DNA from: an uncultured Bacilli bacterium
GTDB taxonomy: Bacteria; Bacillota_I; Bacilli_A; RF39; UBA660
DNA: 32,018 bases
Direction: 5' to 3'
Assembly: GCA_944373135.1 (NCBI GenBank)
Contig: CALWAM010000003.1
Location: 1-32,018, forward strand
Shown here: piece by piece, positions 12,309 through 25,159 of the stretch
Layout: each line of letters begins with the position of its first letter
How positions within the stretch are numbered: position 1 is the stretch's first letter
Notes under the pieces: model-generated
The model's input: only the letters and a program-made list of their open reading frames with translations
What the model was told of the DNA's origin: nothing
Database searches by the model: none
Made by a program: the position numbers and the translations under genes

Positions 12309-14813
12309 TTATAATCTAAAATCATTAATAAAGTCATCAATAGTTAATTCTTGAATATTATCTTCTTTATTAACATCACTATCAATAACCTCTAAATTAT
12401 TTTCCTTCTTTTTATTTAAATAAGAAACTAATTGAACTTTTATACCAACTTCACTAAATTTGCTATTTATACTTGATCCAGTAGATAAACTATCCATAAT
12501 ATTAATATCCGTATCTTTTATCACTTCTAAATCAGCATCATTTTTTAAAACAAACTCTTCTTTATTATTAACAACAAAACTACTTATTACCCTATATGGA
12601 CTAGATTTAACTTTTTTAATTATTAAATCTCCTAATCTAGTTCTCGTATGAATATTAAGTTCACTTAACTTCACTCTTTTAGCTGTATTTTTATTAGTAA
12701 ATATTGTCATATAAATATTACTACTATTATAAACATTTCCACTTACAACAAAGTCATCCTTTAATTTAATCCCTTTTACCCCACTAGTTCTTAATCCAAC
12801 CAAAGGAACTTCATCACATTTAATATTTAAATAATAGCCATTATTAGTAACAAATATACAATTATCCGAAGTAATTTCCACACTAACTACTTCATCATCT
12901 TCTTTTAATTTAATACAATTCATAACTTTAGAATATCTACTAACAATAAATTCTTCCAATTTAGTTCTCTTCGTTAATCCATTTCTCGTAAAGAAAATTA
13001 CTTCTTTATTTTTATCATCAAGTACTATAGTTTTAATAATTTTTTCTTCTGGAGACATTGTGACTAAATTACTAACATGTTTACCTAAATCTTTCCACTT
13101 AGCTTCAAATATAGTATGAACTGGAACATATAAATAATTTCCTTGATTTGTAAACATTAATATCGTATCTAAATTATTTAATTCATAAAGACCAATTAAA
13201 TAATCACCAGGTTTTAATCCTGTTTCTTCATCTTTTAAAGAATTATAAGACTTTTGTGATACTTTTTTAATATAACCTTCATTACTAATAGCAACAATTA
13301 CATTCTCTTTAGATATTAAACTATTAGTATCAATCTTAATTTCTGTTATATTATCTCTTATTTCTGTTTTTCTTTCTGTTGCATATTCTTTTTTAATTAA
13401 TTTTAACTCGGTTTTCATTACATGTTTCAAAGCTTCTTCATTATTTAGTATTTGTTCCCATATTTTCATTTTATTAGCTAAATCAGCCATTGTATTTTGC
13501 ACTTCTAAAATATCAGTATTAGTTAAACGATATAATTGTAACATAACAATTGCTTCTGCTTGCTCTATTGTGAATGTAAATTCTTTTACTAAATTATCTT
13601 TAGCATCACTTTTATTCTTACTAGCTCTAATAACACTTATTACTTTATCCATAATACTAATAGCTTTAATAAGTCCTTCTAAAATATGATATTGTTTCTT
13701 AGCATGTTCCAAATCAAATTTAGTCCTATTAGTAATAACTTCTTTTTGAAATTTAATATAAGCATCCAATATTGGAATAAGACCTAAAGTCATTGGTCTT
13801 TGATTAACTATAGCAACCATATTATAATTATAAGAAATTTGTAAATCCGTATTTTTATATAAATAATTAATAATTAAATCACTATCTACATCTTTTTTTA
13901 ATTCAATAACTATTCTTAATCCATCGCGATCCGTTTCATCTCTAACTTCTGCTATACCATCAATTTTTTTATCGATTCTTATACTCTCCATCTTCGTTAC
14001 TAAAGCTTGTTTATTAACCTCAAATGGTATTTCATCAATAATTATTAAATTTTTTCCTTTTTCTTTTTGTAAATGGTATTTAGCTCTAACAACTACTTTT
14101 CCTCTCCCAGTTGTAAACGCATCAACAATTCCCGCTTTGCCTTCTACTATTCCTCCAGTTGGAAAATCTGGTCCTTTAATTATGTTAAGTAATGTATCTA
14201 AATTACAATTAGGAGATTCAATTCTCTTAATTGTTGCATCAATTACTTCTCCTAAATTATGAGGTGGAATATTAGTAGCATAACCAGCACTAATACCACT
14301 ACCACCATTTACCAATAAATTAGGGAACTTAGCGGGTAGTACCGTCGGCTCTAAAAAACGATCATCAAAATTTGGCGCCCAAGTAACGGTATTTTTATCT
14401 AAATCTTTCGTAAGTTCACTACTTATTTTAGCAAGTCTCGCTTCTGTATAACGATAAGCAGCTGCCGGATCTCCATCCATTGATCCATTATTACCATGAA
14501 TTTCAATTAAAATATTAGATTGTTTCCACCACTGACTCATTCTTACCATTGCATCATATACTGATGAATCCCCATGAGGATGGAACTTACCCAAAACTCC
14601 ACCAACTGTATAAGCACATTTAATATAAGATTTATCATAAGTATTTTTTTCATCATACATATAATAAAGAATTCTTCTTTGCACTGGTTTTAAACCATCT
14701 CTAACATCAGGAATAGCTCTTTCTTGTATAATTGATTTAGCATAATTACTAAATCTATCTCCCATTATATCTTCTAAAGAATAATCCTCTATTCTTTTAA
14801 TAATACTTTCCAT
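12309..14813 (-). CDS. parC: DNA topoisomerase IV subunit A
   Basis: LEDIMGDRF, IIQERAIPDVRDGLKPVQRR, HPHGDSSVYDAMVRMSQ, RYTEARL; follows parE. Confidence 0.93.
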   Translation of the reverse strand: MESIIKRIEDYSLEDIMGDRFSNYAKSIIQERAIPDVRDGLKPVQRRILYYMYDEKNTYDKSYIKCAYTVGGVLGKFHPHGDSSVYDAMVRMSQWWKQSNILIEIHGNNGSMDGDPAAAYRYTEARLAKISSELTKDLDKNTVTWAPNFDDRFLEPTVLPAKFPNLLVNGGSGISAGYATNIPPHNLGEVIDATIKRIESPNCNLDTLLNIIKGPDFPTGGIVEGKAGIVDAFTTGRGKVVVRAKYHLQKEKGKNLIIIDEIPFEVNKQALVTKMESIRIDKKIDGIAEVRDETDRDGLRIVIELKKDVDSDLIINYLYKNTDLQISYNYNMVAIVNQRPMTLGLIPILDAYIKFQKEVITNRTKFDLEHAKKQYHILEGLIKAISIMDKVISVIRASKNKSDAKDNLVKEFTFTIEQAEAIVMLQLYRLTNTDILEVQNTMADLANKMKIWEQILNNEEALKHVMKTELKLIKKEYATERKTEIRDNITEIKIDTNSLISKENVIVAISNEGYIKKVSQKSYNSLKDEETGLKPGDYLIGLYELNNLDTILMFTNQGNYLYVPVHTIFEAKWKDLGKHVSNLVTMSPEEKIIKTIVLDDKNKEVIFFTRNGLTKRTKLEEFIVSRYSKVMNCIKLKEDDEVVSVEITSDNCIFVTNNGYYLNIKCDEVPLVGLRTSGVKGIKLKDDFVVSGNVYNSSNIYMTIFTNKNTAKRVKLSELNIHTRTRLGDLIIKKVKSSPYRVISSFVVNNKEEFVLKNDADLEVIKDTDINIMDSLSTGSSINSKFSEVGIKVQLVSYLNKKKENNLEVIDSDVNKEDNIQELTIDDFINDFRL

Positions 14814-14822
14814 CTACTTCAC

Positions 14823-16733
14823 CTACTTTTGTATTTGATAATTGTCTTCTAAAGTGAATATTACATTCTCTTCTATCCATTCTTTTCTCGGTTCAGCTTT
14901 ATCACCCATTAAAATATTTACTCTCTTTTCAGCTAGTGAAGCATCTACAATATTAACTCTAATTAAGCTTCTTGTTTCAGGATTCATAGTTGTTTCCCAC
15001 AATTGATCAGGATTCATTTCACCAAGTCCTTTATATCTTTGAATAACAGCTTTACCACTATTATTTTTCTTAATTTCTTCTAATTCTTCATCACTCCATG
15101 CATAAAAGTGATTTTTACTATAGGTAATCTTATATAAAGGAGGTTTCGCTATATATAATTTACCAGCTTCAATTAAAGGCTTCATAAATCTATAAAAGAA
15201 AGTCAATAATAATATTTGAATATGAGCACCATCAACATCAGCATCTGTCATAATAATAACTTTATCATAATTACTATCTTCTACTACAAAATTAGATCCT
15301 ACACCAGCACCAATAGTATGAATCATCGTATTAATTTCTTCATTTTTTAATATATCATCCATACTAGCTTTTTCACTATTAAGGACCTTTCCTCTAAGAG
15401 GTAATATAGCTTGAAATTTTCTGTCTCTACCACCTTTAGCAGAACCACCAGCTGAATCTCCTTCAACTAAGAAAAGTTCATTAATTTTAGGATTTTTAGA
15501 ACTAGCTGGCGCTAATTTACTAGACAAATTCTTTTCTAACTTATTTTTATTTTTACCATTCCGTGCTTCTTCTCTTGCTTTTCTTGCTGCTTCTCTTGCT
15601 ACCTTACTCTTTAAGGCTTTATTTACAATATTTGTTGCTATTTCTTTATTTTCTTCTAAAAAGAATTTTAATTTTTCATAAACAACACTCTCCACCACAC
15701 TTCTGGCTTCAGGCGTCCCTAATTTTCCTTTTGTTTGTCCTTCAAATTGCAATAATTCTTCTGGTATTTTTAAATTAATAATCGCAGTTAATCCTTCTCT
15801 AACATCACTACCATCAAAATTACTATCTTTACTCTTTAATAAGTTATTTGATTTAGCATAATCATTGAAAGCTTTAGTTAGTCCAGTCTTAAAACCAACC
15901 TCATGAGTACCACCATCTATTGTTTTAACGTTATTAACAAATGATAAAATAGTTTCTTGATAAGTATCAGTATATTGCATTGCAATTTCAACTTCAATTT
16001 TTTGTTTAACACTATTATAATTAATTACTTTATGTAAAACATTTTTATTTTCATTAATATAATCTACAAAACTAGATAACCCATTCTCATAATGAAAAGT
16101 TGCTTCTTTATCATCAGCTTCATCTTTTACAATAACAGTCAAGCCACTAAGCAAAAAAGCACTTTCTTGCATTCTTTCACAAATAGTTGTGAAAGAAAAA
16201 TGACAATTTTTAAATATGTCAAAATCAGGCCAGAATGTAACCATAGTTCCAGTTTTATTAGTTTTACCAATCGCTTTTAAAGGACTATCTACTTTACCAC
16301 CATTTTTAAAACTAATCGTACTAATTTTACCATCACGATATATTGTTACTTCCATCTTTTTACTTAAAGCATTAACAACACTTGCACCTACGCCATGTAA
16401 ACCACCTGATACTTTATATCCAGCAGTTTCAAATTTTCCACCAGCATGCAAGACAGTATAAATAACTTCCGGAGTTGATTTACCAATTTTGTGCATTCCA
16501 ATAGGAACGCCACGACCAGAATCCTCTACAGTTATACTTTCATCTTTATTAATTGTTACTTTAATTAAATTTCCATAACCATTGATAACTTCATCAATTG
16601 AGTTATCTACAATTTCCCAAACAAGGTGATGCAGACCTCTTTTATCAGTTGAACCAATATACATACCAGGTCTTTTTCTTACTGCTTCTAATCCTTCTAA
16701 TACGGTTATTGAACTTTCATCATATTTTGCCAT
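14823..16733 (-). CDS. parE: DNA topoisomerase IV subunit B
   Basis: LEGLEAVRKRPGMYIGSTD, SGGLHGVGASV, EGDSAGG, PLRGKVLN, TDADVDG, LMGDKAEPRKEWIE. AAGGTGA RBS favours ATG 16733. Confidence 0.93.
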   Translation of the reverse strand: MAKYDESSITVLEGLEAVRKRPGMYIGSTDKRGLHHLVWEIVDNSIDEVINGYGNLIKVTINKDESITVEDSGRGVPIGMHKIGKSTPEVIYTVLHAGGKFETAGYKVSGGLHGVGASVVNALSKKMEVTIYRDGKISTISFKNGGKVDSPLKAIGKTNKTGTMVTFWPDFDIFKNCHFSFTTICERMQESAFLLSGLTVIVKDEADDKEATFHYENGLSSFVDYINENKNVLHKVINYNSVKQKIEVEIAMQYTDTYQETILSFVNNVKTIDGGTHEVGFKTGLTKAFNDYAKSNNLLKSKDSNFDGSDVREGLTAIINLKIPEELLQFEGQTKGKLGTPEARSVVESVVYEKLKFFLEENKEIATNIVNKALKSKVAREAARKAREEARNGKNKNKLEKNLSSKLAPASSKNPKINELFLVEGDSAGGSAKGGRDRKFQAILPLRGKVLNSEKASMDDILKNEEINTMIHTIGAGVGSNFVVEDSNYDKVIIMTDADVDGAHIQILLLTFFYRFMKPLIEAGKLYIAKPPLYKITYSKNHFYAWSDEELEEIKKNNSGKAVIQRYKGLGEMNPDQLWETTMNPETRSLIRVNIVDASLAEKRVNILMGDKAEPRKEWIEENVIFTLEDNYQIQK

Positions 16734-16760
16734 ACTAATTTTCACCTTTTAAATTGTACC

Positions 16761-16795: not shown

Positions 16796-17602
16796 TTATC
16801 TTATTTTAAAAGTTTCATTTTCCATATTTTTAAAAGATGCAAACTGAATTTCTTGTGGTTCTTGCTCTTTCTTTTCTGGTAAATCATCAATACTAGGAGA
16901 TAACTCTGGCATTTCTATATCAACAACTTTTAACTTAGGTTCCTCTTCAACTTTATTTACTTTAGGCGTTACATTAACACTACTAAATTGTTCATTTTCT
17001 TTAAACATAGTGTAATTATCATTAACAGGCTTTAGCGACGCCGTAGGCGCATCACTAGCCATATCTAATAAAGAGTCAACACTAAGTTCAGAATTACTAT
17101 TTCTCGAACCATCGAAAACTGGTTCTTCATTCACAACTAAATTACTACCTTCATCATCGCTTTTTAATGAATCTTCTAATGAAGCAGCTAGAGCATTAAA
17201 ATCAATATTCATTGTTGGTTCAGAATCAACCGTTTCATGGACATCTTTAAAATTAAAGTCAGCCGTTTTAAATTCATCTTCTTTTTCATCTTCCCTAATA
17301 ATCTTTATTTCATCATCTTTGTCATCTGATTCCTTTGCAACTTCTTTATTAACCTCTAAAGCTGTATGTGGTTCAGTTTCTTTAAATGCGAAATTATCAT
17401 TATATTCATTACTCTCTAATACTTTAACACTTTCATCTTTTTCGGTAGATTTCTTAGCATCTCTTAACGCTAAAATTAATACTAATATAAATAATGAAGC
17501 TAAAATAACAATGACTGTTATTAAGCCAACACCAAAATATTCATTCATATAAAGTTTTTGTATAAATTCATTATTAACAAAGAATTCTCTAACTTGTGAC
17601 AT
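16796..17602 (-). CDS. Hypothetical single-TM protein with long acidic low-complexity tail
   Basis: TM FGVGLITVIVILASLFILVLILAL, then D/E/S/P-rich region. Confidence 0.75.
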   Translation of the reverse strand: MSQVREFFVNNEFIQKLYMNEYFGVGLITVIVILASLFILVLILALRDAKKSTEKDESVKVLESNEYNDNFAFKETEPHTALEVNKEVAKESDDKDDEIKIIREDEKEDEFKTADFNFKDVHETVDSEPTMNIDFNALAASLEDSLKSDDEGSNLVVNEEPVFDGSRNSNSELSVDSLLDMASDAPTASLKPVNDNYTMFKENEQFSSVNVTPKVNKVEEEPKLKVVDIEMPELSPSIDDLPEKKEQEPQEIQFASFKNMENETFKIR

Positions 17603-17703
17603 AAGCCCCACCAACCTTATCCTCTTTACTCTATTAATGTATCATAATAAATTATATAAATCAAGTATATATTTATGCATTTTTATTAAAATAAAAAACA
17701 AGA

Positions 17704-17958: not shown

Positions 17959-18372
17959 TTATGCAAGAGACGATAACCAAAAATAATCTTTATTTTTGAA
18001 ATCACAAACGAAATAATTAGTTTTCTCCGTTAAATCTTTTAAAAAAGAAGGATAACTTGTCGTTGTTTCTAACATCATATAAGCTTTATTCACAATTAAT
18101 TTTGTTTTCTCATCATTATAATAATTATAAATCATATGTAAATTATTAAACTTAGTATAAAATTGATTATTACGATATAGATTAAATAAATAAATATTAA
18201 GTTCTAATTTATCAATTGGTATAGCTACCCTTTCAAATATCGACAGTCCCAAATTAAAATCTTTTTTATCTAAATAATATAATTCTTCTAAAGTTTTATA
18301 TAAATTATATGGTAATTTTTTTGTTAAAATTGCAAATTCTTTATTAATCTTAAAAATATAAAATTTTCTCAC
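17959..18372 (-). CDS. sirA: Sporulation inhibitor of replication SirA (YneE)
   Basis: RKFYIFKINKEFA N-terminus, FVCDFKNKDYFWLS C-terminus; tkt-sirA-yneF order as in B. subtilis. GGTGA RBS favours GTG 18372. Confidence 0.8.
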   Translation of the reverse strand: MRKFYIFKINKEFAILTKKLPYNLYKTLEELYYLDKKDFNLGLSIFERVAIPIDKLELNIYLFNLYRNNQFYTKFNNLHMIYNYYNDEKTKLIVNKAYMMLETTTSYPSFLKDLTEKTNYFVCDFKNKDYFWLSSLA

Positions 18373-18415
18373 TATAATCACCAATATGAGAATACTATAT
18401 CAAAAGCAAAAAAAA

Positions 18416-18424: not shown

Positions 18425-20398
18425 TTAAAATATTTTCAAACATTTTTCTAAAATCTTAGCTTCAGTAAATCCAAAATAATCTAAAACTTGATCTTTATGG
18501 CCACTTAACCCAAAACGATCTAAACAAATCATTTTATCTTCTGTAGTAAAATCTCCCCAAGAATAATGACTTCCTGCTTCAATCACTACCACCTTAACAT
18601 TATCTGGAATAACACTTTTTTGATATTCCAAATTTTGTTTTTTAAAAAGTTCAATAGAAACCATGCTTACTAACCTAACATTTTTTCCTCTAACTTTTAA
18701 ATCATCAATAACTTTTGCTGCTAAATTTACTTCACTACCAGTAGCAATTATTACCCCATCACATGGTTTTTCTTCTCCGATAACATAACCGCCGAATTTT
18801 ACTTTAGTCGCATCACTGCCCTTAATAATTGGCAATTCATTTTTAGAAATCACGAGTGCTACTGGGTCATTATTATTTAAGATATTCTCCCACGAACCAA
18901 TAACTTCATTTATATCAGCCGGACGATAAACAACTAAATTAGGAATTGACCTAAGCATTAATAACTGTTCAATCGGTTGATGAGTCGGCCCATCCTCTCC
19001 TACAGCAATCGAATCATGAGTAAAAATATAAATAGCTGGAACTTTCATTAATGCTGCTAATCTAATAGATGGTAACTGATAATTAGAAAAACTTAAAAAA
19101 GTACTACAATATGCTCTTAAATTTAATAAAGATAATCCATTTGTGATTGCTGCCATCGCATGTTCACGTACACCGTAATAAATATTTCTACCACCATAAT
19201 TATTTCTTGAAAAATCATCTTCTTTTACTAAATTAGTTTTACATGAAGATCCTAAATCTGCACTTCCTCCCAATATAAATGGTGTACGGCTAGCAATTAT
19301 ATTCATAATTTTAGAATTAGATTCTCGTAATTCTTCTACATAATTATCGGCAATTTTAAAATTATCACTTCTAAAATTTAAAGAAATATCTCCATTATCA
19401 AAAAAAGTAATTAATCTTTGAATTTCTGACAATTCGGTTTTTTTAACTTCACTATAATATTCATACCATAATTTATATTTTTTACTTACGCGATCATTAA
19501 TTATCTTTCTAAAATTATCAATATCTTCTTCTATAACTTCTAATCGCTTAGTATCGATCTTCATCATTCTTCTTAAATTATCTAAATCATCCTTAGATAG
19601 CGGACTACCATGGACAATATTAGTCCCTTGATTAAAACTTCCTTTACCTATTATAGTCTTAATTTCAATTATAGATGGTTTATTGGTCACTCTTTTAGCT
19701 CTTGTTATCGCTTTATTAATAGCTAAAACATCGTCCCCATCTTTAACATACTCTACATGCCAGTTACAAGCATCAAATCTTTTTAAAAGATCTTCTTTAA
19801 CACTTTTACTTTTTTTGCCATCTAAAGTAACATCATTAGAATCATATAAAACAATAAGTTTGCCTAATCCATACAAACCAGCAATTGAAGCGGCTTCATA
19901 ACTTATACCTTCCATTAAATCGCCATCGCCACACAAAACATAAGTATAATAATCAATTAACTTTTGATTTTTTATTTCTTTAGATACTAAATTAGCTAAA
20001 TATCTTTCTCCCATTGCTATACCAACTGCGGTAGCTAATCCTTGCCCAAGAGGACCTGTTGTTACATCAACTCCTGGTGTAATACCGTATTCTGGATGAC
20101 CTGGAGTTTTAGAATTAATACTTCTAAAATGTGCTATATCTTCTAAATCAATATCATAACCGGCTGCATAAAGTGTTGCATATAACAAGGCTGAGCCATG
20201 TCCTGCAGAGAGAATAAATCGATCACGATTAAACCAATTTGGATTTTGAGGATTAATATTTAAATGATTAGCAAATAAAGTATACATAATTGGAGCTGCC
20301 CCCAGCACAATTCCTGGATGCCCACTTTTGGCATTACTAATCATATCAACCCCAAGCAATTTAATAGTATTAATAATATTTTTTACGTTATCATTCAT
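18425..20398 (-). CDS. tkt: Transketolase
   Basis: SGHPG, RDRFILSAGHGS, TTGPLGQG, GDGDLMEG, GVREHAM, THDSIAVGEDGPTHQP. AAAGGGG RBS favours ATG 20398. Confidence 0.96.
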   Translation of the reverse strand: MNDNVKNIINTIKLLGVDMISNAKSGHPGIVLGAAPIMYTLFANHLNINPQNPNWFNRDRFILSAGHGSALLYATLYAAGYDIDLEDIAHFRSINSKTPGHPEYGITPGVDVTTGPLGQGLATAVGIAMGERYLANLVSKEIKNQKLIDYYTYVLCGDGDLMEGISYEAASIAGLYGLGKLIVLYDSNDVTLDGKKSKSVKEDLLKRFDACNWHVEYVKDGDDVLAINKAITRAKRVTNKPSIIEIKTIIGKGSFNQGTNIVHGSPLSKDDLDNLRRMMKIDTKRLEVIEEDIDNFRKIINDRVSKKYKLWYEYYSEVKKTELSEIQRLITFFDNGDISLNFRSDNFKIADNYVEELRESNSKIMNIIASRTPFILGGSADLGSSCKTNLVKEDDFSRNNYGGRNIYYGVREHAMAAITNGLSLLNLRAYCSTFLSFSNYQLPSIRLAALMKVPAIYIFTHDSIAVGEDGPTHQPIEQLLMLRSIPNLVVYRPADINEVIGSWENILNNNDPVALVISKNELPIIKGSDATKVKFGGYVIGEEKPCDGVIIATGSEVNLAAKVIDDLKVRGKNVRLVSMVSIELFKKQNLEYQKSVIPDNVKVVVIEAGSHYSWGDFTTEDKMICLDRFGLSGHKDQVLDYFGFTEAKILEKCLKIF

Positions 20399-20454
20399 AA
20401 ATAAAGCCCCTTTACTATAATTAGTATAACACACCTACTTTATTTTTACTACCT

Positions 20455-20604
20455 TTATTCATGAACACTTATATTATTATAAATGTAATTACCTCCTTCC
20501 ATATTATTTAAATATTTATAACGATAATTAACACATAAAATAATTATTATAATCACACTACAAAATAACAATCCTTCCATATTATTTTTAATAACTTCTT
20601 TCAT
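20455..20604 (-). CDS. 49-aa single-TM microprotein, candidate SOS cell-division inhibitor (YneA/SosA positional analogue)
   Basis: GAGGTGA RBS; MKEVIKNNMEGLLFCSVIIIIILCVNYRYKYLNNMEGGNYIYNNISVHE*; own promoter containing a LexA box. Confidence 0.72.
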   Translation of the reverse strand: MKEVIKNNMEGLLFCSVIIIIILCVNYRYKYLNNMEGGNYIYNNISVHE

Positions 20605-20624
20605 AGTTAGTCACCTCAGTTATC

Positions 20625-20653
20625 ATTTTAATAAAAACATTTGTTCGTGTCAA
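20625..20653 (-). promoter_or_regulatory. SigA promoter with LexA box in the spacer
   Basis: TTGACA-cGAACaaatGTTTttat-TAAAAT; box at 20635-20646. Confidence 0.85.
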
Positions 20654-20662
20654 TTATCATTT

Positions 20663-20701
20663 GAACAAATGTTTGACTTTTTTACATTTTTTTGTTAAAC
20701 T
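20663..20701 (+). promoter_or_regulatory. lexA promoter with LexA box overlapping -35
   Basis: GAACaaatGTTT (20663-20674) overlaps TTGACT-N17-TAAACT with TG extension. Confidence 0.82.
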
Positions 20702-20719: not shown

Positions 20720-21340
20720 ATGGAAGGTAAAATCACAAAACGGCAAATGGAAGTTTTAAATTACATCAAAAAATATATTGTTAAACACGGTTATCCCCCT
20801 GCTATTAGAGAAATAGGTGCAGAATTAGGTTTATCAAGTCCGGCAACAGTTCATACCCATCTACAAAAACTAGAAACTGCTGGATTAATCAGAAAAACAA
20901 ACTCTAAATTTCGGACGATTGAAGTTATCGGTCCTAATGAGTATTTAGAAACTAAAGAAAACATTGTAAAAGTACCGTTATTAGGAAAAATAACGGCGGG
21001 AAGTCCTATTGAAGCTATTGAAAATCCTGATGAATACTTTGATTTACCAGCTTCATTAATTCCCAATAAAGAAACAATATTTACCCTTAAAGTTAGTGGC
21101 GAAAGTATGATTAACGCCGGTATTTATGATGGCGATATCGTTATTGTACAAAAACAACATAATGCCCGAAATGGTGAAATAGTTGTTGCAATGAATGATA
21201 ATAACGAAGTAACCTTAAAAAGATTTTATAAAGAAAAAGATCATATTCGCTTACAACCCGAAAATGATACAATGGCTCCTATTATTCTTGCCAATTGTAC
21301 AATACTAGGAAAAGCTATTGGTTTATATCGAAAATTATAA
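20720..21340 (+). CDS. lexA: SOS repressor LexA
   Basis: TKRQ, GYPPAIREIG, SPATVHTHL, VPLLGKITAG (Ala-Gly cleavage site), GESM Ser and VTLKRF Lys. Confidence 0.97.
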   Translation: MEGKITKRQMEVLNYIKKYIVKHGYPPAIREIGAELGLSSPATVHTHLQKLETAGLIRKTNSKFRTIEVIGPNEYLETKENIVKVPLLGKITAGSPIEAIENPDEYFDLPASLIPNKETIFTLKVSGESMINAGIYDGDIVIVQKQHNARNGEIVVAMNDNNEVTLKRFYKEKDHIRLQPENDTMAPIILANCTILGKAIGLYRKL

Positions 21341-24267: not shown

Positions 24268-24288
24268 AAAAGAGCTTTAAAAGCTCTT
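24268..24288 (-). terminator. Terminator after the collagen-like gene
   Basis: AAGAGCTTT/AAAGCTCTT inverted repeat followed by T-rich tract on the minus strand. Confidence 0.6.
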
Positions 24289-25159
24289 AATTGATTCTTG
24301 TAATAGATACACTACCAGCCCATGATTCATTAGGCTCTAATTCGAAAGTAACAGTACCTGAATTAATAAACTTATATACTGAATTAGCAGTTGCTGTAAA
24401 TATTGCATTTCCCACTAACATTCCAGTTTGTTGTCTACTCAAACGATTATTTACAGAACTTCTAGCTATGACAGTATCAACAGGTAGTACTTCTTTAAAA
24501 TCAATACTTACCGGATCAACTTCATAATCTGCTGTATTAATTTGTCTTACATTAACCCACCAATTTATTAAATATTGACCTTGAGTATGTATTGTAAATT
24601 GTCCTGTATTTAAATCATAAGTAATTCCACTAGAAATATTTGGCGTTTCAAATAATATTGGTTGTTGAGGATCTACTGAGACTCTTCCAACTTGGTGAAC
24701 CATCGCAAAAGAATTGTAATTACCACCTGCTGGACCAGTTGCTCCAGTTGCACCTGTTGCTCCGGTTGGTCCCATTGGTCCTTGTGCTCCACTAGCTCCA
24801 GTTGCACCCGTTGCGCCAGTTGGTCCCATTGGTCCTTGTGCTCCACTTGCTCCAGTTGCACCTGTTGCTCCGGTTGGCCCCATTGGTCCTTGTGCTCCAC
24901 TAGCTCCAGTTGCACCCGTTGCTCCAGTTGGTCCCATTGGACCTTGACATCCTGCAGGTCCAGTTGGACCCATGGCACCATTCATACCATCTCTGCCTTG
25001 TGGACCGGTTGCTCCAGTATCTCCAGTAGGTCCGGTACATCCACAATCACCAGGATCTCCTTTAGGACCTGTTGGACCTGTTGGACCAGTTACACCACGA
25101 TTAATTAAACAATCTATTACTTCGCATAAACAATCATTATTTTCACAATTATTATTCAT
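24287..25159 (-). CDS. Collagen-like protein, BclA-like (exosporium type)
   Basis: Cys-rich N-terminus without signal peptide, 41 G-X-Y triplets rich in GPT/GAT, beta-rich C-terminal domain (GITYD..TGQFTI...GQYLINWWV). Confidence 0.82.
24740..24943 (-). repeat. 54-bp tandem repeat, about 3.8 copies
   Basis: Encodes [18 protein letters not shown] three times plus a partial copy; copies differ at synonymous sites. Confidence 0.9.

Follow-up and report, generated by a model that had tools for sequence, protein, structure and literature searches.

DNA damage activates RecA, upon which LexA undergoes self-cleavage. Gram-positive bacteria usually brake division during the SOS response with small membrane proteins encoded next to lexA. 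Such proteins are so divergent that they have to be discovered anew in each lineage, and genes of fewer than 50 codons often go unnoticed or unnamed. In PMC6851548, the Gram-positive SOS division inhibitors are described as sequence-diverse proteins with a single transmembrane (TM) segment that co-localize with lexA, some of them carrying a LysM domain, and all characterized Gram-positive lexA-divergent single-TM proteins covered there are division inhibitors. SosA is described in the same text as a 77-aa protein without LysM that is most strongly conserved directly after the TM segment, carries a C-terminal turnover signal read by CtpA, and is 25-60% identical among staphylococci (PMC6851548). 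For YneA, a 2026 study reports that the TM segment binds TM7 of FtsW, and that in Bacillus subtilis the TM segment alone localizes without blocking division, LysM being needed (PMC13396833). Low-confidence AF3 models from that study place SosA, ChiZ and SidA on FtsW, with an extended helix of SosA near the FtsW catalytic cavity and SidA on the opposite face of FtsW TM7 (PMC13396833). LexA-regulated single-TM peptides that are toxic are described from E. coli, namely DinQ (PMC3567139) and the product of tisAB (PMC2577331).

The locus considered here lies in a 32,018-nt stretch of DNA, the window, from an uncultured bacterium of the RF39 lineage whose assembly comprises 0.89 Mb in 102 contigs and is 91% complete. 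Back to back with lexA, on the minus strand at 20455..20604, is an ORF of 49 codons and a stop that begins with ATG and encodes MKEVIKNNMEGLLFCSVIIIIILCVNYRYKYLNNMEGGNYIYNNISVHE, hereafter the microprotein. A Shine-Dalgarno sequence, GAGGTGA (20617..20611, minus), stands 6 nt ahead of the start codon. Upstream of it lies a sigma-70-type promoter (20625..20653, minus; TTGACA at 20653..20648, N17, TAAAAT at 20630..20625) with 11 of 12 matches, from which a leader of about 14 nt is predicted. The promoter spacer contains a LexA-type box, CGAACAAATGTTTT (20647..20634, minus), and a mirror copy, TGAACAAATGTTTG (20662..20675, plus; 12.7 bits), overlies the -35 element of a lexA promoter-like site at 20673..20701 (plus; TTGACT, N17, and TAAACT with TG; 9 of 12 matches). 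lexA follows at 20720..21340 (plus), its 206-aa product matching TIGR00498 (3.9e-68) and combining in Pfam the LexA DNA-binding domain (PF01726, 1.4e-21) with the S24 autopeptidase domain (PF00717, 4.7e-36). The first-pass annotation of this DNA had reported the ORF, its ribosome binding site, the promoter, the spacer box and the mirror box over the lexA -35, and we find every one of them where it was placed. The transketolase gene tkt (18425..20398, minus) lies 3' of the microprotein gene. Beyond tkt, the minus strand carries a GyrB/ParE-like and GyrA/ParC-like pair followed by a YlbD_coat-like gene (12309-16745), and two ORFs between this gyrase-type group and tkt (16796-17614 and 17959-18384) are without a Pfam match. 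On the other side of lexA, the window encodes a 290-aa protein with collagen triple-helix repeats (24287-25159, minus; PF01391, 1.5e-18), in a genome of 0.89 Mb.

Within the window alone these motifs are not significant, and their significance comes from their conservation among relatives. Five promoter-like sites between 20200 and 20900 compare with 4.9 expected, and seven GAAC-N4-GTTC sites (at most one mismatch) in the window compare with 4.06 expected, at least seven occurring in 12 of 100 shuffles. Numbers of this kind would suit an ORF that arose by chance in the AT-rich leader between two genes, with boxes that serve lexA autoregulation alone. The RNA data would suit it too, there being no contig across the ORF in the Logan contigs of four runs, an uninformative result; one 180-nt metatranscriptome contig from these runs maps inside lexA. 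What decides against a chance ORF is the comparison with relatives. An orthologue of 47 aa is present in both further genomes of the same genus, with 67% and 58% identity to the microprotein. We also surveyed the lexA loci of another 60 genera belonging to this taxonomic family under a strict rule: an ORF that is closed, 30-70 aa long and on the divergent strand, starting with ATG or GTG 40-300 nt from lexA, with a hydrophobic 17-mer scoring at least 1.9 in the first 20 residues and a Shine-Dalgarno score of at least 3.5. After three loci with LexA below 55% identity and four with less than 520 nt of upstream DNA were left out of the 61, 54 genera were usable. A candidate is present in 44 of these 54 and in none of the 54 when the DNA is reversed or complemented, and 0.2% of 1080 shuffles pass. 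A second set, made of the 80 closest lexA loci among named metagenome-assembled genome (MAG) records and partly overlapping the first, gives a candidate in 74 of 78 usable loci versus 0 of 78 reversed controls. The records of these relatives carry labels such as uncultured Bacilli, Tenericutes or Mollicutes, 'Coprobacillus sp. CAG:605' and 'Clostridium sp. CAG:594'.

Selection on the ORF points the same way. All 34 within-genus pairs, from six genera, have a lower pN than pS, and dN/dS lies well under 1, at 0.07-0.67 in the 29 pairs for which it is computable, with 0.24, 0.19, 0.09 and 0.10 for the closest pairs and 0.24-0.38 within genus g1; three of the 20 extra loci brought in for this set had no candidate. 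A DNA-run variant differs from our sequence at 22 positions over 1101 nt, and the sole difference within the ORF (20503 A>G) reads as synonymous. The ribosome site is strong throughout, with a Shine-Dalgarno score of at least 3.5 in 46 of 46 picked ORFs, a cut that the strict re-scan itself demanded, and in most genera a second operator lies within the microprotein's own promoter spacer. By comparative sequence evidence, then, the microprotein ORF is a genuine gene that encodes a protein and is subject to purifying selection, its reality is well supported, and the chance-ORF reading, which we consider very improbable, is refuted as far as such comparison goes. The first-pass annotation had named conservation and dN/dS as its check, and both came out in favor of the gene.

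The ten genera that fail the strict scan are a mixed group. One (L048) has a clear 47-aa homologue slightly below the hydrophobicity cut. In another (G051, locus L284) the gene, with both boxes, lies about 1.3 kb away from lexA, and in a third (G062, locus L283) the homologue (E 9.2e-9) is on another contig behind a 147-aa ORF, with no box seen in the 900 nt upstream. Four genomes (G075, G011, G053 and G070) give weak profile matches inside long frames, and the family profile gives nothing at E<=0.01 in G015, G045, G063 and G025, the last of which belongs to another family. These failures and profile-negative genomes count against a division inhibitor.

The family is held together more by its plan than by its sequence. 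An alignment of 48 members has a mean column identity of 22% and a constant plan, with the consensus MKxxxKxxKxxxxFY-TM-RxxxL followed by a polar, N/E-rich tail. In the microprotein this corresponds to an N-terminal MKEVIKNN, a TM segment at about residues 9-27, a juxtamembrane RYKYL and a 22-residue polar tail. The R and L four residues apart directly after the membrane (R28 and L32 here) are conserved, while the tail, with a median of 20.5 residues after the TM segment in proteins of median length 48 aa, is weakly conserved in sequence; most members nonetheless show, by eye, a hydrophobic-alternating stretch 4-8 residues from the C terminus. Net charge averages +1.77 on the N-terminal flank and -0.48 on the C-terminal flank, and the N-terminal value is the higher in 35 of 48 members. 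This family charge bias indicates an N-in, C-out topology, whereas for the microprotein alone the charge rule is ambiguous, at +1 on either side, which weakens the case for a division inhibitor. AlphaFold2, run with the alignment, predicts a single helix over residues 9-37 and gives low confidence to the last 12 residues, so in the model the TM helix extends about ten residues outside the membrane. The first-pass claim of one TM segment and no LysM domain thus agrees with Pfam, the charge and TM analysis and AlphaFold2. A PDB profile match to the TM segment of KCNE2 (E=0.0011) was discarded as compositional only.

We find no existing name for this family. The microprotein matches no NCBIfam family at E<=1 and no Pfam family, LysM included, and across the 48 members Pfam and PHROGs each return three weak single-member matches. 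The YneA model NF010723 matches one of 48 members, at E=0.043 (its cut-off is 60 bits); against the microprotein's own genome it finds only sub-threshold LysM repeats, on contig C4, and across 301 genomes of the class it finds LysM repeats of larger proteins, with lexA beside none of the 30 loci. Querying with the single peptide found no related locus, and the ESM Atlas gave no usable match. With the family profile, a set of 5.8 billion proteins yields 91 at E<=0.01, for which the only name given is 'hypothetical protein', in MAGs that carry the labels Bacilli bacterium, Mollicutes bacterium or Candidatus Faecimonas. In a set of 1.84 billion, 333 cluster representatives match at E<=1e-3; the top 150 of them are 33-84 aa long, mostly 43-53 aa. 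The name SosA occurs neither among the 91 profile hits nor among the NCBIfam hits of the 48 members. The gene had been called unannotated; the family is already called in public assemblies, as 'hypothetical protein'. The accompanying statement that it could not be assigned to a known family is borne out by Pfam, NCBIfam (YneA included) and PHROGs. On sequence grounds, with SosA compared by description, this is probably a new sequence family, unnamed in public catalogues, of a known kind of system. A search of the literature on RF39 lexA or lexA-divergent small membrane proteins found no description for this lineage.

The promoter architecture is conserved along with the peptide. Across 46 loci the layout ahead of the ATG is TTGACA-c-GAACnnnnGTTC-g-TGnTAnAAT, and the lexA-side box is conserved in relatives as gtcAAACAnnTGTTC. 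Counting boxes with at most one mismatch to GAAC-N4-GTTC, 17 of the 46 loci have at least two, 19 have one and ten have none. We built a matrix from the boxes of these 46 loci and scanned the whole genome with it. The microprotein box is the top site at 18.4 bits, a rank that is partly circular because this box is itself one of the 46 training sites. Further high-scoring intergenic sites lie at lexA itself, 54 nt upstream of recA, 26 nt upstream of a Y-family polymerase gene, and 27 nt upstream of a radical-SAM gene that is followed by uvrA; several other high-scoring sites fall inside ORFs or at a contig end. In the uvrA region (contig C1, about 28019-32069; L023, L093) the box stands between a divergent XRE-type HTH gene and the radical-SAM/SPASM gene immediately preceding uvrA; for an SOS-box uvrA operon to open with a radical-SAM gene is unusual. 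The proposal of a LexA-type operator in the microprotein promoter therefore gains from both its conservation across genera and its recurrence at recA, the uvrA operon, the Y-family polymerase gene and lexA. We take the box as a predicted LexA operator whose position in the promoter spacer implies direct repression, and the microprotein gene as almost certainly SOS-controlled. Together with lexA, recA, the uvrA operon and the Y-family polymerase gene it forms a recognizable minimal SOS regulon, as predicted from these sites, and the lineage gains with it a ready operator matrix.

A very small single-TM peptide behind a LexA-type operator need not act on division. In the manner of TisB or DinQ, it could insert in the membrane once LexA is cleaved, lower the proton-motive force or ATP and so cause growth arrest or persistence, with no specific block of the divisome. 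Some genera encode short forms of 30-34 aa that are almost tail-less after the TM segment (L035, L233 and L275), and at one further locus (L056) a 45-aa ORF would give a 28-aa product if started at an internal ATG. The tail-less forms of about 30-34 aa mean that the TM part may be the active core, and with the weak conservation of the tail they speak for such a peptide and against a division inhibitor. Against such a toxin stands the roughly 14-nt leader with its strong ribosome site, which shows no sign of type I translational control. Antisense promoter-like sites follow the ORF in 26 of 46 loci versus 54% of shuffles, which is no enrichment, and the short leader and these unenriched sites thereby favor the division-inhibitor reading. 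The juxtamembrane R and L and the C-terminal hydrophobic-alternating motif, moreover, are conserved outside the membrane, and a fixed divergent placement next to lexA is what marks the Gram-positive division inhibitors (PMC6851548). We consider a TisB- or DinQ-like role, the main rival to a division inhibitor, unlikely.

The neighborhood bears on a further possibility, that the microprotein is an SOS-induced membrane peptide with some other specific role and no direct effect on division, for example in modulating the S41 protease or another membrane enzyme, or in adjusting wall or lipid metabolism while repair proceeds. The evidence for a real gene under LexA control does not tie the peptide to the divisome. 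The next gene often points the same way, and in only one of 46 loci does a terminator-like hairpin follow the microprotein gene within 120 nt. No such hairpin was found between the microprotein gene and tkt (20399-20454), so SOS read-through into tkt is possible; sense promoter-like sites follow the ORF in 36 of 46 loci versus 54% of shuffles. The downstream genes, however, vary by genus (transketolase, glycosyltransferase-like, polA-like and rRNA methyltransferase-like), so there is no common operon partner that would suggest another pathway. The first-pass annotation had placed the gene in a lexA-to-tkt slot, and this description has to be given up, as it is lexA that is conserved beside the gene: the orthologue of G002, a genome of the same genus, is again divergent from lexA and is followed by a radical-SAM rRNA methyltransferase-like gene instead of tkt. 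The microprotein follows lexA, not tkt. The account in PMC6851548, in which all characterized Gram-positive lexA-divergent single-TM proteins are division inhibitors, also weighs against another role, which we regard as slightly less likely again than a toxin of the TisB or DinQ type.

The slot itself is conserved more widely than its occupant, since different genes fill it outside the family. In a genome of another family of the class (G037), a 57-aa single-TM ORF (L106:1206-1376, minus) is divergent from lexA and has the same -35/box/-10 layout, with no profile similarity to the microprotein family (hhalign probability 3.7%). In G038, the lexA-divergent gene encodes an 80-aa DUF896 protein (L107:2373-2612, plus; 4.2e-29); ynzC in the yneA operon of B. 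subtilis presumably belongs to DUF896 as well. In the sole sister-family genome (G025), lexA faces tkt directly. The unrelated peptide in the same slot of a neighboring lineage suggests that the effector has been replaced repeatedly while the lexA-linked promoter module was kept.

Position and plan match those of known Gram-positive SOS division inhibitors, and we therefore rate that role the most likely: by analogy, the microprotein is probably a late division inhibitor of the SosA kind, induced in the SOS response and belonging to a new family, a reading to which we give a rough probability of 55%. The genome provides for such a role, encoding three or four SEDS genes, four transpeptidase-domain proteins, FtsZ and a TM-anchored CtpB_N/PDZ/S41 protease (contig C83). 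Two considerations from the literature count against it, namely that some small membrane peptides under LexA control serve other roles (TisB, PMC2577331; DinQ, PMC3567139) and that the TM segment of YneA, to which the microprotein has no sequence similarity, does not block division alone (PMC13396833). The FtsW/SpoVE-like SEDS gene of this genome is split by contig ends, C72 carrying 190 aa and C96 a C-terminal piece, and for complex prediction we used that of G002 because this genome's orthologue is cut. Co-folded from alignments, the SEDS protein and microprotein of G002 score 0.00, which gives no verdict either way. An FtsW-type SEDS match (E<=1e-60) is absent from 10 of 61 genomes, several of which keep the microprotein, and no pattern emerges.

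If the microprotein is such a division inhibitor, its action could be pictured as follows. In undamaged cells LexA would occupy both conserved operators and keep both divergent promoters shut. Upon damage, self-cleavage of LexA, which here has the S24 domain, would open the microprotein promoter, and the short-leader mRNA with its strong ribosome site would be translated into a peptide that, going by the family charge bias, inserts N-in, C-out. If the analogy with SosA and YneA holds, the TM helix might dock on the septal peptidoglycan synthase (FtsW with a class B PBP). The ten-residue helix extension with R28 and L32, together with the short tail, might by the same analogy block septal wall synthesis, so that division would be delayed until repair is done. 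The membrane-anchored PDZ/S41 carboxy-terminal protease would likely remove the peptide, presumably reading its hydrophobic-alternating C-terminal motif.

Extending this to lineage-wide minimal SOS checkpoint peptides of 45-50 aa that stop septal wall synthesis is a tentative step by analogy, which we hold to be possible though on balance doubtful. If true, a TM helix, a ten-residue helical extension and a degron-like tail would suffice; no other Gram-positive SOS division inhibitor would be as small, and FtsW-type SEDS polymerases would have in these peptides a natural minimal inhibitor. If they prove SosA- or YneA-like, the family would define a very small natural inhibitor of septal peptidoglycan synthesis, and its 333 or more diverged variants could be used to work out which residues are important. 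Specialists in the SOS response will find little surprise in this, and the gene is for them a clean, testable candidate; it also means that a large uncultured lineage of small-genome gut bacteria has an almost universal lexA-divergent gene with a conserved predicted LexA operator.

Among described systems, SosA is closest by description. Both proteins are lexA-divergent, and the SOS control of SosA is predicted for the microprotein from its conserved operator. Both have one N-terminal TM segment and a C-terminal part without LysM, which is extracellular in SosA and, from the family charge bias, predicted to be so in the microprotein. Both are conserved just after the TM segment and near the C terminus, and a CtpA-type protease is encoded here too. 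They differ in size, SosA having 77 aa with a tail of about 47 and the microprotein 49 aa with a tail of about 22, as compared by description. With YneA the microprotein shares its position divergent from lexA, the LexA-type box in its promoter and the single N-terminal TM segment, but it lacks LysM, is about half as long and does not match the YneA model (NF010723 / PRK14125). As YneA requires LysM, the LysM-less 49-mer must work otherwise than YneA. To our knowledge, the genes for TisB, DinQ and SidA are not lexA-adjacent. TisB and DinQ resemble the microprotein as LexA-controlled single-TM peptides of fewer than 50 aa, and differ by their antisense RNAs and processed long leaders, where the microprotein has a leader of about 14 nt and shows no conserved antisense promoter. 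SidA of Caulobacter crescentus, an alphaproteobacterial peptide unrelated in sequence to the microprotein, is described as a 29-aa SOS-induced hydrophobic peptide acting on late division (PMC13396833, PMC4211646), and shows that a peptide of the microprotein's size can suffice.
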